A stretch of DNA of 64,000 nt from an uncultured Clostridia bacterium (lineage in GTDB: Bacteria; Bacillota; Clostridia; TANB77; CAG-465): the NCBI GenBank assembly GCA_934132895.1, contig CAKPAG010000006.1:933-64932 (forward strand), written 5' to 3'. Of the stretch, positions 4,564-52,771 are shown piece after piece (positions within the stretch are counted from its first letter, which is position 1; each line of letters begins with the position of its first letter). The notes under the pieces were generated by a model that did not search any database, was not told where the DNA came from, and was given only the letters and a program-made list of their open reading frames with translations. Both the position numbers and the translations under genes were made by a program.

Positions 4564-5512
4564 AATTATATGAGCCCTCCTTTACATTAAACGAGATATT
4601 TTCTCCATCAGTATTAATTACAACAGTTCCACTTTCATCAGTCCTATACACTGGTATATTGTTTTCTTTAAGCTTTTTCATTGTTTGTTTAGATGGATGT
4701 GAATAATCATTATTCTTACCACAAGATATAACAACAGCTTCTGGCGATACTCTATTTAAAAAAGTGTCTGAAGTAGAAGTTTTTGAGCCGTGATGTCCAA
4801 GTTTTAAAACATCTGCTTTAACATCATATCCTTTTGCTAAAATTTGATTTTCAGATAGTTCTTCTGCATCTCCCATAAACAAAAAAGACCTATTTTTATA
4901 TGTTAGTTTTATTACTATAGAATAATCATTTGCCTCTTTATACTCTGATGAGTTAGGTGCTAACACTTTAAAAGTAGCATCTCCAAACTCAAATTCTTCT
5001 CCTGAATTTGGTGCATATAATTTTTTATTCTTACTCTTAACAGCTTTAGCAAAGTTTTCAAATGTTTTAGTAGAAGATTTTTGTTTTGGAAACAGTATCT
5101 TGTCTATTTGAAAAGTTGAAATAACTTTATCCATTCCTCCAATATGGTCTTCATGTGCATGTGTACCAATAACATAATCAAATTTTTTTACTCCTTGCTC
5201 TTTTATATAATTTACAAGCATATCCTCAGTATCATTTTTTCCAGCATCTATTAACATTGCATGTTCACCAGTTGTTATTAAAATAGCATCTGCCTGACCA
5301 ACATCAATATATCTAATTACAAGTGCTGGTTCTACTGTACTTGATACTATAGATTTTTCATTTTCACTTTCGTTAAGTATACTCTCTTGAACATTCTCAT
5401 TATTTTCTTCTTTATTTGCAAATTCTGTAAAATAGCTTGTAAGTACACCAGCTACCACAACAACTAAGAAAAAAATAATTTTTAACAATTTTTCTTTGGA
5501 CTTTTTCTTCAT
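4553..5512 (-). CDS. secreted MBL-fold metallo-hydrolase (ComEC C-terminal-domain-like)
   Basis: signal/TM N-terminus; HAHEDHIGG metallo-beta-lactamase motif; GHHGSKTSTS. Confidence 0.65.
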   Translation of the reverse strand: MKKKSKEKLLKIIFFLVVVVAGVLTSYFTEFANKEENNENVQESILNESENEKSIVSSTVEPALVIRYIDVGQADAILITTGEHAMLIDAGKNDTEDMLVNYIKEQGVKKFDYVIGTHAHEDHIGGMDKVISTFQIDKILFPKQKSSTKTFENFAKAVKSKNKKLYAPNSGEEFEFGDATFKVLAPNSSEYKEANDYSIVIKLTYKNRSFLFMGDAEELSENQILAKGYDVKADVLKLGHHGSKTSTSDTFLNRVSPEAVVISCGKNNDYSHPSKQTMKKLKENNIPVYRTDESGTVVINTDGENISFNVKEGSYNYGK

Positions 5513-5539
5513 CTTCGCTGCCTCCTAATTATATATATG

Positions 5540-5568
5540 AGTATAATTTAGTAAATTTAATTTGTCAA
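5540..5568 (-). promoter_or_regulatory. sigma-A promoter for MBL/DUF3006 operon
   Basis: minus strand TTGACA (5563-5568) - 17 nt - TATACT (5540-5545), ~25 nt upstream of AGGAGG RBS. Confidence 0.55.
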
Positions 5569-5916
5569 GAAAATTTACCACTTATTTTTTGACGAAAAAA
5601 AAGATAGATTGACAGTAAATGATAAAACCCTTTTTGTAAAGGTGGGTATCTTGTTATAACTATTAGGATCCTCAAAACTTTTAGTAAGAGTATTCAACAC
5701 AAGCTACACTATTCCTGATTCCCGTATCATATCTTGTAGATTTTCATATAATCTGTCTTAATCTATCTATTTATATTTTAACATTAATTTTTTTGTATGT
5801 AAAGCAATTTTAGAAAAAACTTTATTAAAATTTATACAAGTATTACTTTAATTTAATTATACTTATTTATTACAAAAAAATATCAAGTTATCGCCCACTT
5901 TTATCTTAATATTTTC

Positions 5917-6474
5917 TTACTTTTTACAAGTTATACTAATCTTATTTCCGTTTACACCTATCTGATCAACTATAATTTGTTGAATTTGAGCTATTTGTTC
6001 GTCTTTTAAATCTTCTTCTGATTTTACTACAACATTTAAGTTATCATTACTTGTAGGAATAATAACTATATCTTTTATTCCCTTAGATTTTATTACATTT
6101 TCTACCATATTAATTAAATTTTTTTCTGTTATTAATTCATTTAACTTTTTTTGGTATTCATTTACTTGCTCTGCAGATGTATTCTGATTAGCAATTATAC
6201 TAGAATAATTTTCGCTAAGTTCCGAATACATATTATCTCTGTCATATTTAAAAACTGCAATGTCACTATCTTCCTTACTTTCTTTAATTTTAGCATCTTC
6301 TTCTGAATATATACTAACATTATCATATGTAAAACTATCTTTCCCATTTACATATACTGTTTGCCCAAGATTTTTTTCTCTTTCCGGATTATATTTATAA
6401 TTAATATATCCTGCAAGCGAAACCATAAGTCCAACTGATATCAATGCTAACGTACTTCTTTTTACTACTGTCAT
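5917..6474 (-). CDS. spoIIIAH: stage III sporulation protein AH
   Basis: last gene of spoIIIA-like operon; N-terminal TM anchor; position/size consistent. Confidence 0.55.
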   Translation of the reverse strand: MTVVKRSTLALISVGLMVSLAGYINYKYNPEREKNLGQTVYVNGKDSFTYDNVSIYSEEDAKIKESKEDSDIAVFKYDRDNMYSELSENYSSIIANQNTSAEQVNEYQKKLNELITEKNLINMVENVIKSKGIKDIVIIPTSNDNLNVVVKSEEDLKDEQIAQIQQIIVDQIGVNGNKISITCKK

Positions 6475-6479
6475 TTAAC

Positions 6480-7040
6480 TTACACCTCTTTTTCAAAAAC
6501 TTGTATTTTATATGCTGGTACATTTGTAAGGCTCGAAACTGCTGTAGCTATTTTTGACCTCATATCTACTGTTGATGCTCCTTTAGCCACTATTATTGCC
6601 CCCTCAATTTTAGGCATTTCAGTGCTTTCTATAATAGCTGTTTTTTTATTACCATCTTCATTATACGCCACTGTTTTTTCTGTTGTTTTACTTTCACCTT
6701 TTTGTTCTTCCTTTGTGTTATATATGGCACTTTGTTTTGTATCTTGTGAATAAGTTATAACAACAGACACATCACTTATACCAGAAATTTGGGATAAAAC
6801 ATTTGCAAGTTTGGTTTCCAAGTCACTTTTTTTACTTGAATTTTCATTCTCACTAGTATTATTTATATTCTCTTTATTACTTGTACTATTACTTACATTT
6901 TTACTTTCAGTAGTATTACTTTTAAAAATATACTTACTTGCAAGTAATATCACAACAAGTAGTATCACAAGTAAAACAATATTTTCTATTTTTCTATCTT
7001 TAGATTTAGCTATATTTTTTAAGGTTTCTAAATAATTCAT
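6480..7040 (-). CDS. spoIIIAG: stage III sporulation protein AG
   Basis: start set at MNYLETLK (AAGGGGGAAG RBS 5 nt upstream); TM anchor + Ser/Asn-rich linker; operon position. Confidence 0.55.
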   Translation of the reverse strand: MNYLETLKNIAKSKDRKIENIVLLVILLVVILLASKYIFKSNTTESKNVSNSTSNKENINNTSENENSSKKSDLETKLANVLSQISGISDVSVVITYSQDTKQSAIYNTKEEQKGESKTTEKTVAYNEDGNKKTAIIESTEMPKIEGAIIVAKGASTVDMRSKIATAVSSLTNVPAYKIQVFEKEV

Positions 7041-7068
7041 AAAAACTTCCCCCTTCTTACAAGATTTT

Positions 7069-7587
7069 TTATTCTTCAATTACTTCTATTTTCGAAAAGT
7101 CCAAATCATATTCTGAGTTTATATATTTAACCACCTGTGTAACATCATCTAAAGAAGATGTATTTTCATCAATTTTTGCAATACAAATTTTTAACTTATC
7201 AATGTTATATTGTTCTGTCAAAAACATATCTATTGTTTTGCAATTTATTCCTTTTTCTTCTAGTTTTGCCTTTATATCATTTTTCATATTTAGAGCAAAA
7301 GTTTCCCTTAAATTATCATCTCTTTTTTTATTATACATTTCTTCATCAACTGTAGAATTTTCATCCATATTTGACATACTTTCAATAGCTTCAGTTAAAG
7401 AAGCTTCAACGTCTTTATTCTTTAGTACATTTACTAAAGGTGAAACTATTGTTATTATAGTTATAACCCCAACAAGTGAGTATATGTACTTTTTTAAATT
7501 TGTTTTAGGAATAATAAGTTGTATAAATGTTACAAATATCCCCAAACAAAGCATCGCACTTACCCAATTTTTAAATATTTCTACCAT
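7069..7587 (-). CDS. spoIIIAF: stage III sporulation protein AF
   Basis: 172 aa, two N-terminal TM helices; operon position. Confidence 0.5.
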   Translation of the reverse strand: MVEIFKNWVSAMLCLGIFVTFIQLIIPKTNLKKYIYSLVGVITIITIVSPLVNVLKNKDVEASLTEAIESMSNMDENSTVDEEMYNKKRDDNLRETFALNMKNDIKAKLEEKGINCKTIDMFLTEQYNIDKLKICIAKIDENTSSLDDVTQVVKYINSEYDLDFSKIEVIEE

Positions 7588-7643
7588 AATTTATCTCTCC
7601 TTTTTCTTTTGTTTAGATTTTATTTTTACTCTATTTTATTTTT

Positions 7644-8834
7644 TTATTTAACCACACTTCCTACCAAGTTTAATATTATTCCTGTAGATATAACAAAAAG
7701 AATAGTGATTCCTATTAAGACTCCTAGCAAGTTTTTGTATACATTTGCAAAAGATGATATAAATTTTATGACATTTTCCTCTTTACAAATAGGTTCCATC
7801 AAAGCTGAAAGTATACTGTATATAGCTACTACTCCTATTATTTTTATAACTGGTACTATAGCTACTATTATAACGGATAAAATTCCAAGTGTTCCTCCTA
7901 CTTTACCTATTACCTGAGTAGCTCCTACTACACTTTCAAAACTATCAGAAAAAAACTTACCAACAACTGGTACAAAATTTGATACCGCACTTTGAGTGGT
8001 CTTTACTGCAAGTGTATCAACTGAAGCAGTTAAATTTGTTTCCAAAGCCAGAACTCCTAGAAAAAATGTTAAAAGTACTCCTACTATCCATATTGCACTA
8101 GAAGAAAAAAGCTTAGAAGTTTTACTAAAGCTTAAATTTTCAGATATTGCAGATATTACATTTATTGCAACTGATATACTAAAAAATGGCACTACTACAT
8201 AATTTACAATAAACCCTACTGCACTTGCTACAAATAATAACATTGGTTCAATTATACCAGTTGAAGTTATTGCTCCTGTAGATATTAATATTGCCATTAA
8301 AAATGGAGATATTATTTGCATTAAAGTAGTAAGAGTTCCTATTACATTTTTAAACATTGTAATTATATCCACAAAACTTGTTATAGCTATAACAGCTATA
8401 GCTGCAAAGCATGCCAGATGTGCAATTTTGGTTACATCAGATTTTTTTTCAAGTTCAATACTTGAAATTACAGCCATTAAAAGAGTTACTAAATATATTG
8501 ATATTCCGCCTTTAAAGCTTGTCATCATCTCTTTTAAAAAAAATGATAAAAGCTTACAAACTATATTTTTATAATCTATATTATTAGTTTTTATTAAAGA
8601 CGTAGCAATATCTTCAAATTCTATCCCATCTATTCCAAACTCCTTTACGCTATCATTTACTTTTTCTATGTATTCATCTATCCCAACATCTTTTTCTATA
8701 TTTGCTTTAACAGTTTCACCTACATTTTCACTTTCCATATTTTCTGCAAATATGCATGAATTAAAAAGTGTAGTTTGAAAACAGATTAACAAAAAAATGT
8801 ATATAATAATTTTTCTAATTTTTATTCTTACCAT
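7644..8834 (-). CDS. spoIIIAE: stage III sporulation protein AE
   Basis: 396 aa polytopic membrane protein with N-terminal signal; operon position and size typical of SpoIIIAE. Confidence 0.65.
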   Translation of the reverse strand: MVRIKIRKIIIYIFLLICFQTTLFNSCIFAENMESENVGETVKANIEKDVGIDEYIEKVNDSVKEFGIDGIEFEDIATSLIKTNNIDYKNIVCKLLSFFLKEMMTSFKGGISIYLVTLLMAVISSIELEKKSDVTKIAHLACFAAIAVIAITSFVDIITMFKNVIGTLTTLMQIISPFLMAILISTGAITSTGIIEPMLLFVASAVGFIVNYVVVPFFSISVAINVISAISENLSFSKTSKLFSSSAIWIVGVLLTFFLGVLALETNLTASVDTLAVKTTQSAVSNFVPVVGKFFSDSFESVVGATQVIGKVGGTLGILSVIIVAIVPVIKIIGVVAIYSILSALMEPICKEENVIKFISSFANVYKNLLGVLIGITILFVISTGIILNLVGSVVK

Positions 8835-8837
8835 TTC

Positions 8838-9230
8838 TTATACCAATCCTGTTAATACATTTACAAGTGTTGCAATAAGAGGAAGTGATAAAGATACTAT
8901 AATTACTTTGCCAGCCAGTTCAAGTTTAGTAGCTATAGCACTTTGTCCAGCATCTATGCAAATATTTTTTCCAAACTCAACTAAATATGCAATACCCGTT
9001 ATTTTTAAAATTATTACTAGAAATTCTTTATTTATTCCTGAACTTTCAATTAAAGCATTAAGCATATCTACAATCGGAGTTATTTTAGATATAGTAAATA
9101 AAAGTATACATACACCAGCTGCTATTGAAAGAACTAGTCCAATCTCTTTTTTCTCATTATTTAACATTACTATCAAAATAGTAGCAATAATAGCAAAGCC
9201 AAGAATCTTAAATACTTCCACCTTTATCAC
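8838..9230 (-). CDS. spoIIIAD: stage III sporulation protein AD
   Basis: 130 aa, 4 TM helices; operon position. Confidence 0.6.
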   Translation of the reverse strand: MIKVEVFKILGFAIIATILIVMLNNEKKEIGLVLSIAAGVCILLFTISKITPIVDMLNALIESSGINKEFLVIILKITGIAYLVEFGKNICIDAGQSAIATKLELAGKVIIVSLSLPLIATLVNVLTGLV

Positions 9231-11042: not shown

Positions 11043-11130
11043 CTATTATATTTATATTATATATTAATAAAAATATTTGTCAGATTATATATTAAATACG
11101 AGATTGTTTTGACGAAAAAATAGAAAAAGT

Positions 11131-11157
11131 TAAAAGAGGTTATTTTAACCTTTTTAT
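11131..11157. terminator. hairpin terminator downstream of RloB-like gene
   Basis: AGAGGTTATTTTAACCTTT hairpin with T-runs on both strands. Confidence 0.4.
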
Positions 11158-11176
11158 ACTCTTCCTATTTATACAA

Positions 11177-11806
11177 TTATTCATTATTTCTTACTATTAA
11201 CTCTTCTACTATTTTATATACACTACTATGGGGATTACACTTTTCACTATCTAAAATTTTCCCTAATTTTAATTGATAAGATTCAAGTTTTTTAGCATTT
11301 TTTATTGCCTGATTAGTTAAATCTTTAATTATTAAATATGTATTATCTTTCTTTAAATAATTAGGTATGTATTTCTTTAACTCCTCCTGTAATTCACTAT
11401 TTGTAGCAAATGTTTTGGTAGTAAATCCAAAGTGCAATAGGAACCACACTTCAAAAGTAGGAGTTGAAGTAATTATCTCAATACCACTTTCTTTTGCTAA
11501 TTTTTTAGCCGCATCTATTTGATCATTTTTATTTTGACCAACATCCGTATCAAATACTGCATAAATCTTATCGTTTTCTTCCACTTCTATCTCACTATGA
11601 ATAAAATTAATCAGTTCTTGTACAATTCCTTTGGGATCAGTACTATTACCTCTCGAAAATTTAATAATACACTTTCTACTATTAAAGTTTCTAAAATATA
11701 TCTTTTCAGTTTTATTATTTCCTTCACACCCAATTATAACAAAAGGATTCCTTTTCCTTTTTTCAGTATTTCTTTTTCTTTGATTAAATTTTCTTACTCC
11801 TGCCAT
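11177..11806 (-). CDS. RloB-like (Toprim-like) protein, AbiLii-like partner
   Basis: N-terminal VIIGCEGNNKTEKIYF (RloB family CEG-x-TE motif), DTD acidic motif; overlaps upstream ATPase by 13 nt. Confidence 0.6.
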   Translation of the reverse strand: MAGVRKFNQRKRNTEKRKRNPFVIIGCEGNNKTEKIYFRNFNSRKCIIKFSRGNSTDPKGIVQELINFIHSEIEVEENDKIYAVFDTDVGQNKNDQIDAAKKLAKESGIEIITSTPTFEVWFLLHFGFTTKTFATNSELQEELKKYIPNYLKKDNTYLIIKDLTNQAIKNAKKLESYQLKLGKILDSEKCNPHSSVYKIVEELIVRNNE

Positions 11807-13077
11807 ATGTTATTTTCAACTGCTACAAAAGGGATCGCCCCATATCTTCCATTCAAATATCCTTTTTGAATGTTTTCTGTTTTTCTTACAGAAAAATCGT
11901 CCAATGGATATAATTCTGTAGCCCCTTTCTTTTGATCTTTTTCAGCAAACCATATTTGATCCCTTCTAAATAAGTCTAGTGACAACAAATTAGTGTCGTG
12001 TGTGTTAAATATTAACTGAGCATTTTTTTTGTTTATTTCTGAATTGTGAAAAAATTTAATTATCATTTCAACCAAATTAGGATGTAAACTTTTTTCTATT
12101 TCATCTATTGCTATAACCTTTCCATTTTCAAATGCATTTTTTAATAATGGTGCCATTGAAAAAAGTATTCGCGTACCTGATGATTCATTATTAAAATTTA
12201 ACTCAAACACTGTAGGTTTTCCATTTTTATCTATTACTTCATGAGCCATAGTTATACTTTTAATTATTTTTGCTTTAGGCATGATCATATTAGGAGAAAT
12301 ATTGATATTATTTAGTTGCATTAGTATATTATTTTCTATTTCTTTTTCTTCAATTTCAACATTATAATCTTTGATAACAATATCTGATTCTTCTAGCAAT
12401 CTTAGAGTAAATTTTTTTAAACTTTCATTTTCATCATTATCATATGCTTCCAAAGAAAAGGGCGTTAATTCCATTCCCCCAGAATATGTGTCTATCATTT
12501 TCGCAAACCATAGATATGGTTTTTTAGTTTTATCATAATTCCAAGTAGTAGCTGTAGCCAAAAACAATTTATTGTCTAAATTTTGATTTTTAATTGAGTT
12601 AAGTTTTCCCTCATCTGACTGTAAAAATTTATATTCACTACAATTAGTCCTTTCAAATATTCTTGTTGCTTTGGCAGATAAAAACTGATATAAATATTCC
12701 TCATATACCCTCTCTTTATCTGCTTTAAAGCCATATACATATTTTGTTGAATCAACATAAAAAATAAATTCAAATTCACATGGACTATTTTTTGATTCAT
12801 TATCAAAAGCAAAAGGTTCCATTTGAGATAATTTTTCTCCTGGCTGTCTACTATTAGATAATCTCACCATCATTACTGCGGCAGAAATAGCATTAATCAA
12901 GTTAGTTTTTCCAGATGCATTTGCTCCATATAAAGCTGTTGTTTTTAATACTCTTTCTTTAGATCCATTTAAAGTAACAACATTATTAATGTTCTCTTCT
13001 CCTAAGCCTGCCTCCATACTAAAATCTTGCTTCTCTTTAAATGACATGAAATTTTTTACACTAAACTGAATTAACAT
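11794..13077 (-). CDS. AAA_21/ABC-type ATPase (AbiLi-like)
   Basis: N-terminal FxxFKNF...ALYGANASGKTNLINAI Walker A; C-terminal VIAIDEIEKSLHP Walker B/D-loop; start set at MLIQFSVKNF (AGAGGTGA RBS). Confidence 0.65.
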   Translation of the reverse strand: MLIQFSVKNFMSFKEKQDFSMEAGLGEENINNVVTLNGSKERVLKTTALYGANASGKTNLINAISAAVMMVRLSNSRQPGEKLSQMEPFAFDNESKNSPCEFEFIFYVDSTKYVYGFKADKERVYEEYLYQFLSAKATRIFERTNCSEYKFLQSDEGKLNSIKNQNLDNKLFLATATTWNYDKTKKPYLWFAKMIDTYSGGMELTPFSLEAYDNDENESLKKFTLRLLEESDIVIKDYNVEIEEKEIENNILMQLNNINISPNMIMPKAKIIKSITMAHEVIDKNGKPTVFELNFNNESSGTRILFSMAPLLKNAFENGKVIAIDEIEKSLHPNLVEMIIKFFHNSEINKKNAQLIFNTHDTNLLSLDLFRRDQIWFAEKDQKKGATELYPLDDFSVRKTENIQKGYLNGRYGAIPFVAVENNIWQE

Positions 13078-13195
13078 AAAATCACCTCTTACTATATTAT
13101 ACACTTTTTCTAAAAAAATGCAACTGTATTTTATTAATATTTTAAGCTTTTATGCATTTTTTATTCATTTTTAGTAAAAATAATATGATAATAAA

Positions 13196-21338: not shown

Positions 21339-22295
21339 TTAATTTAAAAAATTCATAACTAAATCGATTATAACTTCTTTTTCTTTTGGATTTGACTCAG
21401 CAATAAGCAATGTTAAAGCCGTCAATGTATTATTATCAATAACTTGTTTACTATCTTTATACAAAATATTATAATAACTCAAAAAGTAGATAAATAATGT
21501 TGCTGCTATTCTTTTATTTCCATCTATAAAGACATGATTTTTAACAATCATATATAAGAAATTAGAAGCTTTTTCCTCTATACTTCTATAAACTTTCATT
21601 ACCATCAAATGTTTGATAAATATTTCCTATTATTGATTCTAATCCTTTATTTCTTTCAATAGCAAAAATATCACTTTCTTCATTAAATCTTAACTGATTA
21701 ATTATTTTTAAGCAATCTTGATATTTAATTTGTTTCTTACTCTCACTCCCATTAGGTTTTGATAGTTTTTTATGATCATAATCATCTAAAAGTTCAAGAG
21801 CTTTGGAATAGTTTCCTATTACTTTTAAAATTTCTTTGGCATCATTATTTTCTAATTTTTCATCTATTCTATTAGCAATATCTATCAATTTCACTGTCTT
21901 TTCTAAATATTCCAATCTTTTTTGATTAATTGAATATCCTTTAATCATGTAATCTTTTAAAATTTTATTTGCTCATTTTCTAAAAATAACACCATTTTGT
22001 GATTTAACACGATAACCAACACTTATAATTACATCAAGATTATAATAATCTATTTTTCTAGTTTGAGTTTTATTTGCTAAAGCACCATGTGAAGTGGTGT
22101 GTGCAAATTTTGCACACACCTCATTTTCATCCAATTCTTTTTCTTTAAAAATGTTATTTATATGCCTTTTATTACTGTTCTATCTCTATCAAAAAGCATT
22201 GCTAACTGTTCTAAAGATAGCCACACAGTATCATCTTTCATATTAACTTCTAATTCTATGTTTTGATTTTCAAATAAAATTATTTCATTTTTCAT
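21339..22295 (-). pseudogene. RhuM-family / Fic-Doc virulence protein pseudogene (2 frameshifts + in-frame TGA)
   Basis: N-term MKNEIILFENQNIELEVNMKDDTVWLSLEQLAMLFDRDRTVIK (RhuM-like); conserved ...ELDENEVCAKFAHTTSHGALANKTQTRKIDYYNLDVIISVGYRVKSQNGVIFRK-TGA-ANKILKDY with TGA where Trp expected; C-term Doc motif NHVFIDGNKRIA; frame breaks at T4/A4 run (22167-22170) and at GAAAGTTTA (~21586-21608). Confidence 0.65.
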
Positions 22296-29181: not shown

Positions 29182-31734
29182 TTGGATAAATTTTTTAAAG
29201 CTTTGCATATAAAAAAGCCGGATAAGCTTTTAACATATATTTTATATGGATTAACAGGATTTTTAGTCCTTATTTCCTTTGGAAGAATTTTAGGATTTTT
29301 AGTGGGAGATGCAACTATTGCAAATAATATTTCCCCCTACCTTTACACAATATTTATTATCATACCCGCACTTGCATATTGTTTCTATGTTAATTCTGGT
29401 ATACCAAAAAATGATAATATGAGAATTAACATGTATATCATAACTTGTTCAATGCTTGCAATAATACTTGGTGGTATGAGCTGTACTTGGATCAATAACG
29501 TTGCTTGGTGGATACTAAAAAAACTACCTAATTTCAATTTAGTTATGAAAACATATCCTGAGCTTTTCGCACCAGCAATAAAAACACTATGTTTAGCTGT
29601 ACCATTTGTATCAGTATTTAAAATAATTGATTACTTCTTACTTATTTTTAGAGATGAAGACTTACCTAAAGCTATTGCTGGTTTCTCTGGTCTTTCAGTA
29701 GTAAAAAAATCTAAAGAAGGTGGAGCATTTAGTTGTGAAACAATTATCTGTAAAGCTGAAGGTTCTTCAGTTCCAGTTGTAGTTCCAGAGAAAAAACGTT
29801 ATGAGGCAACACTTGTTCAAGGTGCTACTGGTACTGGTAAAACAGCTACTGTACTTTTACCAATGAGTGCATTAGATCTTGAGAGAAAACATTTCTTCAG
29901 AGAATATTCAAAAAGAATTGGTTACTCTATGTTAAAAAGAGGTATCGCATATATGAGTGGACCTTTTACAAATGAGTATGTTAACAGAAACTTTATACTA
30001 AATTACTTACATCCAAAACGTGGTATGGAAGAACAATTCATGGATGAAGTAAGACCAATAATGCAATATATAGATAATTCAACTGGTAAAATAACATATA
30101 GAAATCTTGGTATAACAATAGTAGAAAATGATGGAAACTTTATTTCACAATTTATTGGGGTAGCAAATAATTTTGATATAGATGTACTAACAATAGATCC
30201 TGCAGCTCCTGAAACAACATTAAGTATAAACCCATTTGCAATCCCTGATCCAGCTAAAGCAGCTTCAATTGTATCAGACGTTTTAAATGCAATGTATGAG
30301 AGTACTGGTGGAGGAAAAGCAGGAGATCCATTCTTTACACAAGTAACAATTGACGCATTCCAAAACTTATCAATACTTTTAAAAGAAATGTATCCTAGAC
30401 TTCATGATGGAGAAATTGCAAGTTTGGAAGACATGCTAGAATTGTTATATAACTTTGATGCTGTTGAAGAAATGACAGAAGAAATGAAAAAAGTTCCAGA
30501 ACTTGAACAAAAATACAAACTATTAATACGTTACTTTGAAAAGAATTTCTACAAACCATCACTAAATATAAATGGATATGAGATACCTGGTACACGTGGT
30601 AGTGGTAGAAAAGATACAGAAAAATTCTTGTATGGTGCAATAACTCAACTTAACAACTTAGTAAGACATCCAGGACTTAAAGCTGCACTTTGTGGAAAGA
30701 AAAATATAATTGATTTTGATAAAGCATTAGAAGAAGGAAAAGTAATCACTGCATGTTCTAGAAAAGGTGAACTTGGTATATTACAAGCCAAAGCTTTTGG
30801 TATGTTCTTTATACTTCAGTTCCAAGATGCTGTATTAAGAAGAAAAGGAAATGAAGAATCAAGAACACCTCACTTCTTATACATAGATGAATTCCCTGAA
30901 TATATCACAAAAGATATGGAAGTTATGTTTACACTATTTAGAAAATATAGATGTGGTGTTACTGTAGCAATACAAAACTTATCACAGCTTGAAAAAAGTG
31001 GCCATGCATACTATCGTCAAGTTGTACTTGCTAACACAAAAACTCAAATCGTTTTCGGAGATACTGTTAAAGAAGATAGTGAATATTGGGAAGCTGCATT
31101 CGGTAAAAAGAAAATTCCAGACACTACAACTTCATTTGATCTTTCTAATGGAGTAAATAAAGGATCTGGTAAAACTACATTAAAAATAGAGAAAAAAGCT
31201 AAAATTGAAGGTTGGAAGCTTGCCGAACTTGGATTTGGAAGCATATTCTACAAAACTAAGAATGCTTCTGGTAAATCAATATATGGTAAAGGAAAAACTG
31301 GTTTCTTAGATGCAAAATACAAAGAAAAGGCTCCATCACAAATGTTTAATTTTGAAAAATATATGATGAGTAAACCAGATGAACCAACAATTATAATGAA
31401 TGATTCTGATGAAAGTGATAACGCAGATAATTTATTTGGTGTAAATACTGATTCTAGAATAAAAGAAGAATTAAGAAAAGCTGCAACAGAAGCAGCAACT
31501 CTTGATACAACTGACATGAGATATACAAAAACTGAACCAACCACTTTATCAAATATATCAGATTCAAATTCAGATAGTTCACCAAATACAATGGCACACG
31601 ACCTTTCTGATATAGATGATTTTGAAATAATATTTGACGATAGTGAACCAACACTAGAGGATGCTTCAAAAGACGGTGGTGCAATAACAGAAAGTTATGA
31701 AACTCCAGCTATAAAAAGACATAATAAAAAGTAA
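29182..31734 (+). CDS. membrane-anchored TraG/TraD/VirD4-like (T4CP-like) P-loop ATPase with acidic disordered C-terminus
   Basis: 4 N-terminal TM helices; Walker A LVQGATGTGKTATVLLPM; Walker B HFLYIDEFPEY; AIQNLSQLEK (TraG-D_C-like QxxxQL); TTG start per ORF track; Asp/Ser-rich tail. Confidence 0.45.
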   Translation: MDKFFKALHIKKPDKLLTYILYGLTGFLVLISFGRILGFLVGDATIANNISPYLYTIFIIIPALAYCFYVNSGIPKNDNMRINMYIITCSMLAIILGGMSCTWINNVAWWILKKLPNFNLVMKTYPELFAPAIKTLCLAVPFVSVFKIIDYFLLIFRDEDLPKAIAGFSGLSVVKKSKEGGAFSCETIICKAEGSSVPVVVPEKKRYEATLVQGATGTGKTATVLLPMSALDLERKHFFREYSKRIGYSMLKRGIAYMSGPFTNEYVNRNFILNYLHPKRGMEEQFMDEVRPIMQYIDNSTGKITYRNLGITIVENDGNFISQFIGVANNFDIDVLTIDPAAPETTLSINPFAIPDPAKAASIVSDVLNAMYESTGGGKAGDPFFTQVTIDAFQNLSILLKEMYPRLHDGEIASLEDMLELLYNFDAVEEMTEEMKKVPELEQKYKLLIRYFEKNFYKPSLNINGYEIPGTRGSGRKDTEKFLYGAITQLNNLVRHPGLKAALCGKKNIIDFDKALEEGKVITACSRKGELGILQAKAFGMFFILQFQDAVLRRKGNEESRTPHFLYIDEFPEYITKDMEVMFTLFRKYRCGVTVAIQNLSQLEKSGHAYYRQVVLANTKTQIVFGDTVKEDSEYWEAAFGKKKIPDTTTSFDLSNGVNKGSGKTTLKIEKKAKIEGWKLAELGFGSIFYKTKNASGKSIYGKGKTGFLDAKYKEKAPSQMFNFEKYMMSKPDEPTIIMNDSDESDNADNLFGVNTDSRIKEELRKAATEAATLDTTDMRYTKTEPTTLSNISDSNSDSSPNTMAHDLSDIDDFEIIFDDSEPTLEDASKDGGAITESYETPAIKRHNKK

Positions 31735-47413: not shown

Positions 47414-48943
47414 TTATTTTTCTTTACTATATATAGCCTCTATCTTACTTGGATTTATACTAGTACCAATTGATATATTATTAATTCCATTTATAGTTGA
47501 TATTTCTGGTAGATTTAGTATTTTTTCTTCAGTCTTAGATTCTAATGTAGTACAAACTTTTACAGGTTTATTTTCATTTTTTAAATCAGATAAATATTTT
47601 TTGAATCCAGATACACTTACATCATAATTTAAATTTGTTAAATAAGTTTTGTTAATCTTTAATTGATAAAATTTAGTATTTGAAATATTACAACCTTCAA
47701 CATCTTGTGTAAATATTGAAGCCCTACCAGGATATTTTTCTACTAATATATTAGATAATAATCTACCATTTGAAAGTAGGTCACTATCTGATAAAAAGAA
47801 TCTTTGATTAACTACATTAGTTCCACTTCCACCTAATTCCCATCTTTCTGTGCCATCAAATACTCTTCCTTTTATATTTCTTACAATTTTTTTATTCTTA
47901 AAGTCTATATAATCTACTGCATCTCCAACTTTTCTTAAAGGTTCATTTAAAAATATGTTTGTTGTAGTGCCTTCTACGTATGGCTCATAATCTGTAGCAG
48001 CAGTTCCCAATTCTATTTGAATATTTTTTATTATTGAATCTGCTCCACCTTGTGCAGAAGTTTGCTTATACAAATAGACACCACTATCTAACATCTCCTG
48101 TGTAGCTATATACTTTGTTTTATTGGTAATATAAGTATTGTAACTCGAACTTGTATTATTTAAATAAATCTGACTATAACCATTTGTTTCCATAGAAAAT
48201 ACAAATTCATCTCCTACTTTTAAATTTGGAGCCAACTGCGATAACTTTTTACCTGTAAATGATGGATAACTTTTTACTGTTATGCTTCCGTCTCCATTAT
48301 CTAAAATACGAGTTCCGGTTATGCACTCTTTTATATCAAATAAATTTTTTCCAGTCACTGTTACAGGTATTTTATATTTTCCATAATTAGAGTCATTTGT
48401 GTCTGTTACTAATTCTCCTACACTTTGTATTTCTACTGGATTATCTGGTGTAGGTGTACCATTTTGTATACTATTACCATATATCCTTAAGTTTTCTAAT
48501 TTTCCAACAGTAGCATTATCTATCTGAATATTTTTACTATCACTTGATACGGCTTTATCATAGTTTGTATTTTCTCCTGTTAATGTCTCATTAGCCCAAT
48601 TATACTCTTGCATATTTGATTCATCTGTATATTCTAAACTTCCACCATTTATAGCTATTTTTTCTATATATTTATCTTTTATACCTGGTAAAATATTTTT
48701 TATATCTTCACCTGACTTATTCAAATCACTTACATTATATGTTCCTTGACTATCTGCATATTGTTTTTGAATGTATAAATCTAATTCTTCCTTTAGCGTT
48801 ATTATATCATTTTGAAATGTTGCTTTTTTAGCATTTTCAATTGGATTGTTATTTGCAATAGAAAGTATTACTGCTACTGCCAATATTATAATTACTATTA
48901 TTGTTATTACTAGTACTATAAGTGATATACCTCTTTTTTTCAT
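47414..48943 (-). CDS. mosaic pilin-like N-terminus surface protein, paralog 1 (509 aa)
   Basis: MKKRG/ISLIVLVITIIVIIILAVAVIL class-III-signal-like segment (no Glu+5); ~200-aa N-terminal region ~95% identical to paralog 2; distinct central module; conserved C-terminus IPEISTINGINNISIGTSINPSKIEAIY. Confidence 0.6.
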   Translation of the reverse strand: MKKRGISLIVLVITIIVIIILAVAVILSIANNNPIENAKKATFQNDIITLKEELDLYIQKQYADSQGTYNVSDLNKSGEDIKNILPGIKDKYIEKIAINGGSLEYTDESNMQEYNWANETLTGENTNYDKAVSSDSKNIQIDNATVGKLENLRIYGNSIQNGTPTPDNPVEIQSVGELVTDTNDSNYGKYKIPVTVTGKNLFDIKECITGTRILDNGDGSITVKSYPSFTGKKLSQLAPNLKVGDEFVFSMETNGYSQIYLNNTSSSYNTYITNKTKYIATQEMLDSGVYLYKQTSAQGGADSIIKNIQIELGTAATDYEPYVEGTTTNIFLNEPLRKVGDAVDYIDFKNKKIVRNIKGRVFDGTERWELGGSGTNVVNQRFFLSDSDLLSNGRLLSNILVEKYPGRASIFTQDVEGCNISNTKFYQLKINKTYLTNLNYDVSVSGFKKYLSDLKNENKPVKVCTTLESKTEEKILNLPEISTINGINNISIGTSINPSKIEAIYSKEK

Positions 48944-49087
48944 AAATCATTCTCCTCTTTTTATTATTTGCTTTTTAGCAATAATTATTATACAATAAAA
49001 TTCAACATCTTGCAATAAGTTTACAATAAATTTACCATAATTTTTAATACAAAAAGATGGCTATATTAGCCATCTCTCCTATTAATT
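48944..49087. repeat. repeated intergenic unit (terminator + promoter + palindromic 5'UTR), copy 1
   Basis: near-identical to 50654-50797; contains AGATGGCTA-ata-TAGCCATCT terminator hairpin (minus), TTGCAA-17-TATAAT promoter, TTATTTGC-TTTTT-AGCAATAA palindrome, AAGAGGAGAA RBS. Confidence 0.7.
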
Positions 49088-50653
49088 TTATTTTCCATAT
49101 ACAACTTCCATTTTGCTTGGATTTACACTAGTCCCTATTGATATATTATTGGTTCCATTTATAATTGATATTTCTGGTATTTCTATTGTTTCTTCAGTTG
49201 GTGTATTTAGTACATAAAATAATTTTGGATTATTGTTTAAAAGCCATCCTCTAAATGCTACTTTATCGGCTGCAGCAACGATTTCGCTATTAATTCCAAT
49301 GAATATTCTTTGCAGTTCTGGTTTTAAAGTAATATGATTACTACCACTAAGATGATTAGTATTCATTTCAAAATGAGTACAAATTAAATCTGAATTATTT
49401 GTTTTTGAGTAAGTAAAATTATAATATATTGAATATCCATTAACTGACAACATTGAAGCATACTCATGAAAACTATTTCTTATATCAGATAAGTTTTCAA
49501 CCCCTACATTTCTTACTACTTTTTTATTTTTAAAATCTATATAATCTACTGCATCCCCAACTTTTCTTAAAGGCTCATTGAAATAAATATTGGTTGTTTG
49601 CCCTTTATATGGTTCGTAATCTGTTTCTTTGTTTCCTTCTTCAATTTGAAATGTATTAATATCTATATAATTTTTAAAGCAATAATTATGGCTTATTGTT
49701 CCTATTTCTTTTATAGTTTTATTAGCTTTAGATGTATATGATATATGTTTCCATTCAGTTTCATAATTTGGATTTGAAACTACAATATCGTCTCTAGAAC
49801 TGTCAGTATACCAAATATAAAGTAAACCTGATGTTTTATTCGGAGCTGAAGATGAGTTCATTGTCTGTTTATAATCAAAAGAAAAAGTATATTGGGTATT
49901 TTCCTTAAAATAAATATCTGAATATTTCATCTCAAAGTTATCAATAAAAGAGATACAATCTCTATCATCCAACTTTATTTCAGTATATCCAGAATCATTT
50001 GCAGTTCCAGCTGATTTCTTTAGTCCGCTATATACTTGTTTGGCTGTTCCAATATTTTTGCCAGTTACTGTTACAGGTATTTTATATTTTCCATAATTAG
50101 AGTCATTTGCGTCTGTTACTAATTCTCCTACACTTTGTATTTCTACTGGATTATCTGGCGTAGGTGTACCATTTTGTATACTATTTCCATATATTTTTAA
50201 ATTTCCCAGTTTCCCAGCAGTAGCATTATTTATCTGCATATTTTTACTATCACTTGATACGGCTTTATCATAGTTTGATTTTTCTCCTGTTAATGTCTCA
50301 CTAGCCCAATTATACTCTTGCATATTTGATTCATCTGTATATTCTAAACTTCCACCATTTATAGCTATTTTTCCTATATATTTATCTTTTATATCTGGTA
50401 AAATATCTTTTATATCTTCACCTAACTTATTCAAATCACTTGCTTTATATGTTCCCTGACTATCTACATATTGTTTTTGAATGTATAAATCTAATTCTTC
50501 CTTTAGCGTTGCTATATCATTTTGAAAAGCCGCCTTTTTAGCATTTTCTATTGGATTATTATTTGCAATAGATAGTATTACTGCTACTGCCAATATTATA
50601 ATTACTATTATTGTTATTACTAGTACTATAAGTGATATACCTCTTTTTTTCAT
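49088..50653 (-). CDS. mosaic pilin-like N-terminus surface protein, paralog 2 (521 aa)
   Basis: same N-terminal 200 aa as paralog 1; central module ...FKENTQYTFSFDYKQ...QIEEGNKETDYEPY shared with paralog 3; C-terminus IEIPEISIINGTNNISIGTSVNPSKMEVVYGK. Confidence 0.6.
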   Translation of the reverse strand: MKKRGISLIVLVITIIVIIILAVAVILSIANNNPIENAKKAAFQNDIATLKEELDLYIQKQYVDSQGTYKASDLNKLGEDIKDILPDIKDKYIGKIAINGGSLEYTDESNMQEYNWASETLTGEKSNYDKAVSSDSKNMQINNATAGKLGNLKIYGNSIQNGTPTPDNPVEIQSVGELVTDANDSNYGKYKIPVTVTGKNIGTAKQVYSGLKKSAGTANDSGYTEIKLDDRDCISFIDNFEMKYSDIYFKENTQYTFSFDYKQTMNSSSAPNKTSGLLYIWYTDSSRDDIVVSNPNYETEWKHISYTSKANKTIKEIGTISHNYCFKNYIDINTFQIEEGNKETDYEPYKGQTTNIYFNEPLRKVGDAVDYIDFKNKKVVRNVGVENLSDIRNSFHEYASMLSVNGYSIYYNFTYSKTNNSDLICTHFEMNTNHLSGSNHITLKPELQRIFIGINSEIVAAADKVAFRGWLLNNNPKLFYVLNTPTEETIEIPEISIINGTNNISIGTSVNPSKMEVVYGK

Positions 50654-50797
50654 AAATCATTCTCCTCTTTTTATTATTTGCTTTTTAGCAATAATTATTA
50701 TACAATAAATTTCGACACGTTGCAATAAGTTTACAATAAATTTACCATAATTTTTAATACAAAAAGATGGCTAAATTAGCCATCTCTTCCATTACTT
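50654..50797. repeat. repeated intergenic unit, copy 2
   Basis: see copy 1. Confidence 0.7.
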
Positions 50798-52771
50798 TTA
50801 TTTTCCATATATAACTTCCATTTTACTTGGATTTACACTAGTGCCAATTGATATATTATTGGTTCCATTTATAGTTGATATTTCTGGTATATTTATGCTT
50901 TCTTGTTTTTTATTTATTAATACATAGTCTACTACTATATTATGAGACTTTACCCAAGCTTTAAAATCATTTGCACTATCTGCAGTTAATCTATTTTTAG
51001 CAATACTTACATAAATATAATTCTTTTCTAAAGAATAAATTGCTTCATTACTAGCATTAATCGTACTCGAAACATTAGAAGAAAAAGTATTTGATATAGC
51101 AGATCCAAACTGTATACCACTTAGTGAACAAGCATAAGTATGATAATTATCACCATTTTTATAATTCCACCAATTTTCATTTCCTTTTAATGTAGTTTCA
51201 CCTATACTTCTTACGACTTTTTTATTTTTTAAATCTATATAATCTGCATATTCTCCTATTTTTCTTAAAGGTTCATCTAAATATATATATATAGTTTTTT
51301 CTTTATATGGTTCATACCCTGTTTCTTTGTTTCCCTCTTCAATCTGAAATGTATTGATATCTATATAATTCATAAAGTGATAATTATAACTTATTGTTCC
51401 TATTGACTTTATAGTTTTATTAGCTTTAGACGTATAAGAAATATGCTTCCATTTCACATCCTCATTTGAGTTTGAAACTTTAATGCTTTCATTTGAATCA
51501 TCAGTATAATAAATACAAAGTAAAACTGCATTTTTGTTGTTTGCTTCGGATGAGTTTACTAATTGTTTATAGTCAAAGGAGAACGTATATTGAGTATTTT
51601 CTTTAAAGTTAATACCTGTATATTGGGTACCTCTATTATCTATAAAGCCAACACACTCTCTACCATCAAGTGTTGTTTCTGTATACCTTGATTCTGTTGC
51701 CAATCCACTATAAACTTGTTTAGCTGTTCCTAAATTTTTACCTACTGCTGTTAATGTTATAGGTATTGCATATTTCCCATATGCTACGTATTCTGTTGCA
51801 ATGTTTCCCTCTTCTAATTGAATGGAATTTTCATCAAAATAACATCCTTGGCTATATGAATATGTTGTTTCAATATGGCTAATTGTTTTACCTAAATTAG
51901 ATTTCAAGGTATACGAGTTCCATGTGGAATCATTTTTAACATAAATCGTACTTCCTGTACCATCTGTATAAACAAATTTAAAACCTGTAGAAACACCTGT
52001 CCCTACTATTCCTTTTGCTCTAAAACTAAGAATATACTGAGTTTGGGGTTTAAATTGTCCAGACATATATGGTTTTCCATTACTGCCACCCCTTGGACTA
52101 TAATATATACAGCTAGTACCATCAACTTCTGTCTTTTCTACATATTTGGTTGAAAAACTTCTTAAAAATTCATACCATTTATTTACATCAAATTTATTTT
52201 TTATATCTCCAACACTTTCTATCTCTACTGGATTATCTGTACTAGGCGTTCCATTTTGTACACTATTTCCATATATTTTTAGATTTTCTAGTTTATCTTC
52301 AAATTCAGTATCAATTTGTGCAGTACCATTATCAGATTCTGCTTTATCATAATCTGCTGTTATTCCATCAAAAACTTCCACAGCCCACGAGTATTCTTTC
52401 ATATTTGAATAGTCATAATAATTTAATCTGCCACCTATTATTTTTATTTTATTTAAATACTTATCATTTATACTAGGTAAAACTAACTTAATATTTTGAT
52501 CTGTTTGTTCGATTCCATCCTCAACTAAAATATTTTCATCTGCATACAATTCTTCTACTTCATATACTCCTTGATTTTCCGCCATTTTTCTATGTATGTA
52601 TGTATTTAAGTCTTCTTTTAAAGCAGACATATCAGTTTCAAAAGCAACCTTTTTAGCATTTTCTATTGGATTATTATTTGTAAGTGTTAATATTATTGCT
52701 GCAGAAAGTACTATTGTTACTGCTATTGTTATCACAAGTACTATAAGTGATATTCCTTTTTTTTCTCTCAT
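50798..52771 (-). CDS. mosaic pilin-like N-terminus surface protein, paralog 3 (657 aa, two central modules)
   Basis: MREKKG/ISLIVLVITIAV...; more divergent N-region but conserved LENLKIYGNSVQNGTPSTDNPVEIESVG block; two beta-rich modules; C-terminus INIPEISTINGTNNISIGTSVNPSKMEVIYGK. Confidence 0.6.
   Translation of the reverse strand: MREKKGISLIVLVITIAVTIVLSAAIILTLTNNNPIENAKKVAFETDMSALKEDLNTYIHRKMAENQGVYEVEELYADENILVEDGIEQTDQNIKLVLPSINDKYLNKIKIIGGRLNYYDYSNMKEYSWAVEVFDGITADYDKAESDNGTAQIDTEFEDKLENLKIYGNSVQNGTPSTDNPVEIESVGDIKNKFDVNKWYEFLRSFSTKYVEKTEVDGTSCIYYSPRGGSNGKPYMSGQFKPQTQYILSFRAKGIVGTGVSTGFKFVYTDGTGSTIYVKNDSTWNSYTLKSNLGKTISHIETTYSYSQGCYFDENSIQLEEGNIATEYVAYGKYAIPITLTAVGKNLGTAKQVYSGLATESRYTETTLDGRECVGFIDNRGTQYTGINFKENTQYTFSFDYKQLVNSSEANNKNAVLLCIYYTDDSNESIKVSNSNEDVKWKHISYTSKANKTIKSIGTISYNYHFMNYIDINTFQIEEGNKETGYEPYKEKTIYIYLDEPLRKIGEYADYIDLKNKKVVRSIGETTLKGNENWWNYKNGDNYHTYACSLSGIQFGSAISNTFSSNVSSTINASNEAIYSLEKNYIYVSIAKNRLTADSANDFKAWVKSHNIVVDYVLINKKQESINIPEISTINGTNNISIGTSVNPSKMEVIYGK

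Follow-up and report, generated by a model that had tools for sequence, protein, structure and literature searches.

Whether two overlapping genes that lie between the spoIIIA operon and a SNF2-type helicase gene form an anti-phage defence system, and how far such a system would extend, is the question raised by this locus of an uncultured Clostridia bacterium. The locus is part of contig CAKPAG010000006.1, of which a stretch of 64,000 nucleotides (nt), referred to throughout as the window, was analysed. A preliminary description had read the two genes as an AAA_21-type ATPase and an RloB-like protein of the AbiLi/AbiLii type, with a logic akin to that of OLD and PARIS systems, and had suggested that, together with the SNF2 helicase and a Y-family polymerase, they might form a small defence islet. 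The findings presented here indicate that the pair is probably an anti-phage module of AbiL type (RloA/RloB-like), complete in its two genes and toxin-antitoxin-like in its logic, which an uncultured, low-GC gut Clostridia species carries on its chromosome as a cassette that varies between strains.

Both open reading frames (ORFs) were located on the minus strand with an overlap of 13 nt, and every motif quoted in the preliminary description was recovered: Walker A and the Walker B/D-loop IAIDEIEKSLHP in the ATPase, and VIIGCEGNNKTEKIYF and FDTD in the RloB-like protein. In the ORF list the ATPase starts with GTG and spans 11794..13104 (436 amino acids, aa). There is little doubt, however, that translation begins at the ATG at 13077, which yields a predicted protein of 427 aa, since a ribosome binding site (RBS; AAGAGGTGA) stands 4 nt upstream of this codon, public gene calls of the identical protein are 427 aa long, and all homologues begin with ML.QF (ML.QFSVKNF). 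Pfam AAA_21 (PF13304) matched the protein with an E value of 4.1e-33 and a score of 116.2 bits (cutoff, 27), and AAA_15 matched it as well (2.7e-10). The PADLOC model for AbiLi (PDLC02335) covered residues 7-430 of the 436-aa ORF (6.2e-98, 325.8 bits), and weaker, generic PADLOC matches were obtained to AriA, mad3, HEC-01A, PtuA and GajA; a search of NCBIfam with the pair returned no specific model.

The Walker A motif, the signature-like SSGT, the Asp-Glu of Walker B and the H-loop are invariant across 59 homologues and are also kept in plasmid relatives down to 30% identity. When an AlphaFold2 (AF2) model of AbiLi, with a mean predicted local distance difference test (pLDDT) score of 73.8, was compared with the PDB by Foldseek, the top matches were retron Eco7/Ec78 PtuA, Rad50, SMC/cohesin heads and Septu PtuA (E 2e-10 to 1e-8). 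A search of solved structures by sequence gave weak matches, to retron/Septu PtuA chains only. Judged by its motifs, AbiLi is an intact ABC-type ATPase. An entropy profile of 120 homologues showed peaks of variability at residues 31-40, 201-215 and, above all, 241-295, and the variable insert at ~241-295 is a plausible specificity or sensing insert.

The 209-aa partner matched Pfam RloB (PF13707) over model positions 2-195 of 195 (1.6e-37, 130.1 bits against a cutoff of 31.5), such that both family assignments proposed earlier hold well above the Pfam cutoffs. It also matched PADLOC AbiLii (PDLC02337; 1.1e-23), as did all 53 diverse RloB relatives, and neither PADLOC nor Pfam gave a match to AriB or DUF4435 for this protein. 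The RloB family is a large one, with ~9,950 clusters at 50% identity (E <= 1e-3). In relatives of 30-49% identity, residues E28, E34, Y37, D79, D86, P116, E119, W121, H125, Y150 and A167 are invariant, and D88 is kept in at least 90% of them. In the AF2 model of AbiLii (pLDDT 86, predicted template modelling score 0.81), residues 22-27, 47-50, 80-86 and 110-115 form the strands of an alpha/beta core, and the C-terminal half is helical. In this model E28, together with E34, follows strand 22-27, D86xD88 ends strand 80-86 and E119 follows strand 110-115; a Glu after strand 1 and a DxD ending strand 3 are, as modelled, the Toprim pattern, and AbiLii is presumed to be a Toprim-like metal-dependent nuclease effector.

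Fold searches with AbiLii gave a single strong match in BFVD, to an RloB-like phage protein (template modelling score 0.69), and no match when the model was run against the PDB with Foldseek; no RloB-family protein was found in a sequence search of solved structures. Alignment of RloB profiles by hhalign to P2 Old (full length and C-terminal domain) and to the DnaG of the window was not significant, with the greedy alignment putting EG..TE on VEGKTE and FDTD on ADCD. Certain diverse RloB relatives cross-match the PADLOC models mad4, GajA and HEC-01B, which are partners of ATPases that AbiLi itself cross-matches (mad3, HEC-01A), and these cross-matches lend indirect support, at the level of sequence, to a Toprim relationship of RloB.

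The distribution of the pair was followed in two sets of loci, one within the species (metagenome contigs encoding an identical SpoIIIAB) and one across related species (one genome per species scanned with SpoIIIAA, giving 15 loci of 32-65% identity). Within the species, the pair is present on ~15 contigs against ~7 empty alleles, and two contigs (L028 and L030) and ~4 similar places run from SNF2 straight to spoIIIAA. Filled and empty alleles cease to be homologous one base past the stop codon of SNF2 (13198-13196); on the other side, homology begins again at CTTTTTCTATTTTTTCGTCAAAA, ~95 bp upstream of the start codon of spoIIIAA (ATG, 11033). In place of the cassette the empty alleles hold an unrelated spacer of ~200 bp with a hairpin of its own. 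These borders enclose the two genes only, with no integrase, transposase or recombinase inside, and a search for flanking direct or inverted repeats and target-site duplications at the borders gave AT-rich chance matches only. The lack of repeats and recombinase fits replacement through homologous recombination within the conserved flanking DNA.

Across related species, relatives of AbiLi or AbiLii were found at none of the 15 loci, and the SNF2 helicase gene lies directly upstream of spoIIIAA in eight of them, with a gap of 140 bp to 3.2 kb. The preliminary description had named universal conservation in the lineage as an outcome that would count against its reading; since the pair is missing at every one of the 15 related-species loci and from about one third of the conspecific contigs, it is accessory and dispensable rather than housekeeping. 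The same data bear on the proposal that the pair has a housekeeping DNA-repair or sporulation-linked function exerted with SNF2, the Y-family polymerase or the spoIIIA operon. The pair adjoins SNF2, DinB and spoIIIA in the same orientation, and the fold of its ATPase resembles Rad50 and SMC heads; however, conspecifics with an identical SpoIIIAB lack it, the related species that keep SNF2 just upstream of spoIIIAA do so without it, the ~95 bp upstream of spoIIIAA are common to filled and empty alleles, and the same pair occurs in unrelated contexts, plasmids and phages. A housekeeping role is thus extremely unlikely. The interval between SNF2 and spoIIIAA is a recurrent insertion point. In related species it was seen to hold a Phd/YefM antitoxin-family ORF (L015:7046-7330), split TnpV fragments (L013:3309-3747) and a gene for a 776-aa Cna_B surface protein (L014:5133-7463).

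Adjacent, co-oriented genes in the order ATPase then RloB are also seen in homologous loci, and these pairs overlap by 4-13 nt (4 nt in L038, 13 nt in L042, 13 nt on the Clostridium beijerinckii plasmid L044 and 8 nt on the Klebsiella plasmid L045). Since abiLii is without a convincing Shine-Dalgarno sequence, translational coupling with abiLi is likely. A candidate promoter precedes abiLi within cassette-specific DNA that is missing in empty alleles. It was omitted by a promoter consensus scan because its -35 hexamer fits at only three of six positions; that scan returned 31 promoter-like sites against 17.6 expected in DNA of 26% GC. Downstream of abiLii, an A/U-rich terminator-like hairpin has a predicted stability of -20.1 kcal/mol (z = -4.4), which none of 200 shuffled sequences equalled, and its 3′ arm falls in the flank common to empty alleles. 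A simple terminator scan returned no terminators and missed this hairpin because it requires at least three G-C pairs, and an Rfam scan of window positions 10-14 kb found nothing real. The two genes are probably one transcription unit.

Table 1. Features of the AbiL-like cassette. Coordinates are those of the window; residue numbers are those of the respective protein.
Feature	Position	Strand	Details	Basis
Whole strain-variable cassette	11130..13194	minus	~2.07 kb	Alignment of the window with empty alleles L028 and L030
abiLi-like gene	11794..13077	minus	Predicted 427-aa ABC-type ATPase (AAA_21/AAA_15)	Pfam, PADLOC, motifs, AF2/Foldseek
Walker A	AbiLi G51ANASGKT58		Invariant	Alignments
Signature-like motif SSGT	AbiLi S299-T302		S299 and G301 invariant	Alignments
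Walker B/D-loop IAIDEIEKSLHP	AbiLi D325, E326		Invariant	Alignments
H-loop	AbiLi H360		Invariant	Alignments
abiLii-like gene	11177..11806	minus	209-aa RloB-family protein	Pfam RloB, PADLOC AbiLii, AF2 model
RloB motif VIIGCEGNNKTEKIYF	AbiLii E28, E34		After strand 1	AF2 model
RloB motif FDTD	AbiLii D86, D88		End of strand 3	AF2 model
Gene overlap	11794..11806	minus	13 nt; abiLii start (ATG 11806-11804) within abiLi 3′ end (TAA 11796-11794)	Sequence
Candidate promoter and RBS	13082..13123	minus	TTGcat (13123-13118), 16 nt, TATAAT (13101-13096), RBS AAGAGGTGA (13090-13082), 4 nt before ATG 13077	Sequence reading
Terminator-like hairpin with U-run	11115..11170	minus	A/U-rich; 7 nt past abiLii stop	RNA fold

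Homologous pairs were found in settings that have little in common with the spoIIIA region. An ATPase of 76% identity, with its RloB gene, lies upstream of rimP-nusA-infB and adjoins a region with integrase, Mob, Bro-N and Fic genes. A 67%-identical AbiL pair (L042) has a 1776-aa gene with an RVT_1 reverse-transcriptase domain immediately upstream (L042:262-5592) and Fic genes nearby, surroundings that may represent a defence-rich neighbourhood in another organism. RloB relatives were present on 69 plasmid records, where they are commonly annotated beside an ATP-binding protein, and on four phage records. On a Klebsiella plasmid of 5.25 kb, the one annotation inspected, the pair is the sole cargo besides mobilisation genes and one small ORF. 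Among the plasmid matches listed, all of which are below 60% identity, there was no Lactococcus record. The pair therefore moves as a unit among unrelated genomic contexts, plasmids and phages.

These settings also bear on the possibility that the pair serves a restriction-modification (R-M) system as an RloA/RloB-type accessory, acting with hsd genes as in the type I R-M loci of Campylobacter. The RloB family was named after genes embedded in such loci (PMC10440598), and one plasmid homologue of the ATPase (H52) is annotated RloA. In Campylobacter, however, RloA/RloB lie within or next to hsd genes, whereas the pair in the window is flanked by SNF2, DinB and spoIIIAA, with no hsdR, hsdM, hsdS or methyltransferase gene beside it; the cassette comprises its two genes alone, and the homologous pairs elsewhere are also without R-M neighbours. 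An R-M accessory is accordingly very unlikely.

The pairing with AbiLi/AbiLii put forward in the preliminary description, and the likeness in logic to OLD and PARIS, are borne out by the PADLOC matches of both proteins. The AbiL system of Lactococcus lactis plasmid pND861 (Deng, Liu & Dunn 1999), likened to the present pair through the PADLOC/DefenseFinder models, has the same arrangement of an AAA_21/AAA_15 ATPase gene followed by an overlapping, co-oriented gene for an RloB protein of ~200 aa; it is plasmid-borne in a lactic acid bacterium, whereas the window copy is chromosomal in gut Clostridia. As cited in PMC13064643, Deng 1999 established lactococcal AbiL experimentally as an abortive infection (Abi) system, and the same 2026 review describes the AbiL mechanism as still untested. 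AbiL has been grouped with systems that combine an ABC-ATPase and TOPRIM (PMC11464382). PARIS, which belongs to this supergroup, likewise splits a sensor ATPase (AriA) from a small nuclease effector (AriB, a Toprim tRNase) and has a toxin-antitoxin-like logic, and AbiLi matches the PADLOC AriA models (1.1e-34, 1.3e-12). The effector differs, being DUF4435/AriB in PARIS and RloB (PF13707) here, and AbiLii superposes poorly on AriB according to the published review (PMC13064643).

The NetFlax pair TOPRIM_OLD(D44, RloB-like):AAA(D29) of Clostridium algidicarnis (Ernits et al. 2023), likened here by its published description, also joins an RloB-node toxin to an AAA partner; toxicity and neutralisation were validated for it in E. 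coli, and phage defence was not shown for that pair. The OLD family (P2 Old and Gabija GajA), MADS mad3/mad4 and HEC-01A/B similarly couple an ABC ATPase to a Toprim-type nuclease, and the ATPase of P2 Old can be aligned with AbiLi in the region of the signature and Walker B motifs (E 5e-5). In Old and GajA, however, the two domains are fused in one polypeptide, and Gabija needs GajB, whereas the window pair consists of separate genes with no helicase partner inside the cassette. The PtuA ATPases of Septu and retron PtuA-PtuB systems are the closest solved structures to the AbiLi model, but their nuclease is the HNH protein PtuB rather than RloB, and the PtuA models were matched weakly (1e-7 to 1e-9).

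By analogy with PARIS AriA/AriB and other ABC-ATPase/Toprim systems, and given the published toxicity of RloB-type proteins, AbiLi oligomers would keep AbiLii in check as long as the cell is uninfected. Once AbiLi, with its ATPase cycle, senses a phage-derived cue, AbiLii would be released or activated, and the effector would cut nucleic acid (tRNA/RNA or DNA), such that the infection is aborted. Candidate contact elements between the two proteins are the C-terminal tail of AbiLi, which is unstructured, and the N-terminal tail of AbiLii (residues 1-21), which is basic and Arg-rich (R12, R17). In the entropy profile the C-terminal part of AbiLi, residues 371-416 (RRDQIWF...KGYLNGRYGAIP), is almost invariant. 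From residue 394 the AF2 model has pLDDT values below 50, over a tail of ~394-427 (...RKTENIQKGYLNGRYGAIP; window 11794-11898) that nonetheless ranks among the best-conserved parts of the protein (...DFSVRKTENIQKGYLNGRYGAIP...), even in the 30%-identical homologue on the Klebsiella plasmid. A tail that is near-invariant yet unmodelled is a pattern typical of partner binding, and the C-terminus of AbiLi is possibly a partner-binding element.

A more specific form of this mechanism, in which the RloB effector would be a Toprim nuclease that targets tRNA or other RNA rather than a DNase, latched to the ATPase by the AbiLi tail (~394-427) and the Arg-rich RloB N-terminus, is put forward only tentatively, and we regard it as more doubtful than not. 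Activity as a tRNase has been shown for AriB and was reported for P2 Old in a 2026 preprint. If this form were true, AbiL would stand apart within the ABC+Toprim supergroup as a sensor-effector architecture with a mechanism of its own, and the filled, empty and effector-truncated alleles would offer a population-level handle on its cost and benefit.

Most filled alleles share at least 99.8% identity with the window; a second allele, represented by L032 and L033, is ~2% divergent from it. Between the two alleles, abiLi has nine synonymous and two non-synonymous changes, a ratio that is taken as a sign of selection and counts in favour of the anti-phage reading. The corresponding numbers for abiLii are 11 and 8, which is relaxed constraint, and in L033 (L033:5151-5648, protein P0401) the RloB gene carries a premature stop, Q166* (CAG to TAG), with the ATPase intact. 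The truncation removes the invariant A167 and the near-invariant P192. Records of the 165-aa product exist for six contigs, indicating a circulating allele and not an assembly error.

Several of these observations, together with published results, weigh against the anti-phage reading. The relaxed abiLii and the Q166* allele mean that part of the population may be losing the system or may be able to do without it. The case for a promoter is weak in AT-rich DNA of 26% GC, and defence, toxicity and nuclease activity at this locus are all inferred. Furthermore, AbiLii of lactococcal origin is non-toxic in E. coli, and AbiLi of Fusobacterium nucleatum supplied in trans failed to neutralise its AbiLii (PMC3985639), such that an antitoxin role of the ATPase is either not universal or needs co-expression in cis. 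On the other side, AbiLii of F. nucleatum does prove toxic when made in E. coli (PMC3985639), and the AAA ATPase of C. algidicarnis neutralises the RloB-node toxin with which it is paired (PMC10440598).

That RloB-type proteins can be toxic and that an AAA partner can neutralise them (PMC10440598, PMC3985639) would equally suit a selfish addiction (toxin-antitoxin) module, kept because the RloB toxin would be set free if the ATPase were lost, with no meaningful anti-phage benefit to the host. Such a module would account for the abundance of the pair on very small mobilizable plasmids as near-sole cargo. The sole inactivating lesion seen, moreover, lies in the putative toxin gene with the ATPase spared, the direction that an addiction module tolerates, although the Q166* allele fits tolerated toxin loss or decay, either one. 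Against pure addiction, the lactococcal prototype confers phage resistance (Deng 1999, as cited in PMC13064643), a cassette that sits in the chromosome and has no mobility gene would profit little from addiction, and toxin-antitoxin behaviour is compatible with defence, as in PARIS. Addiction without defence is therefore considered unlikely, and an AbiL-type anti-phage module remains the preferred reading of the pair.

The surroundings of the cassette are chromosomal backbone, with the spoIIIA operon and genes for SMC, SecA, ClpC/McsB and DnaG in the window. The SNF2 protein has SNF2_assoc, SNF2 and Helicase_C domains and a weak SWIM domain, and its PADLOC matches to DpdE and ZorD are confined to the generic helicase core. 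Both DinB and SNF2 are found in every conspecific contig that reaches them, whether the pair is present or not. The islet that had been suggested, with the SNF2 helicase and the Y-family polymerase as members, is not supported in view of these generic matches, the fixation of DinB in conspecifics and the synteny of SNF2 with spoIIIAA in the eight related species without the pair; only the two-gene cassette is variable there. In two contigs with the AbiL pair (L005 and L006, ~6800-9175) only a 235-aa C-terminal SNF2 fragment was called upstream of it, and the gene may be disrupted or the assembly gapped. In the empty-site contig L028 (L028:1-853) a KilA-N domain protein is encoded upstream of DinB, where the window has a TMEM164-family membrane protein.

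Variation is not confined to the AbiL cassette; the region has several independent small variable slots, which include an AAA_14/DUF4143 gene and a RhuM-Fic gene. The former encodes a 424-aa ATPase and, in certain conspecific contigs, stands in opposite orientation between spoIIIAH and a metallo-beta-lactamase-fold gene (L003:17255-18529, and also in L004 and L032-L035); the corresponding gap in the window, 5512-5917, is without it by tblastn. The latter is present in the window as a frameshifted RhuM-family and Fic/DOC pseudogene (21342-22226, minus strand), at a distance of ~8 kb from the cassette. Indels have split it, but its sequence is ~99% identical to that of a conspecific 295-aa gene that is intact (L001:854-1741); in L003 the gene is absent. 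Elsewhere in the window, three consecutive ORFs of 509, 521 and 657 aa (47414-52771, minus strand) had no Pfam match at E <= 1e-5, and an 850-aa protein (29182-31734, plus strand) showed weak TraG/TraD-type coupling-protein domains (E ~1e-8 to 5e-9). The gene for this protein is oriented opposite to its neighbours and may be what is left of a conjugative element.

The architecture of the pair is unremarkable and leaves knowledge of the family unchanged, and its interest lies mainly in the unsolved mechanism of AbiL and in the series of alleles. At this locus a chromosomal AbiL cassette with clear borders is present in an uncultured Clostridia lineage of the human gut. Its filled, empty and effector-truncated alleles are available in public metagenomes, and this natural allele series can serve studies of how AbiL-like systems turn over and what they cost.

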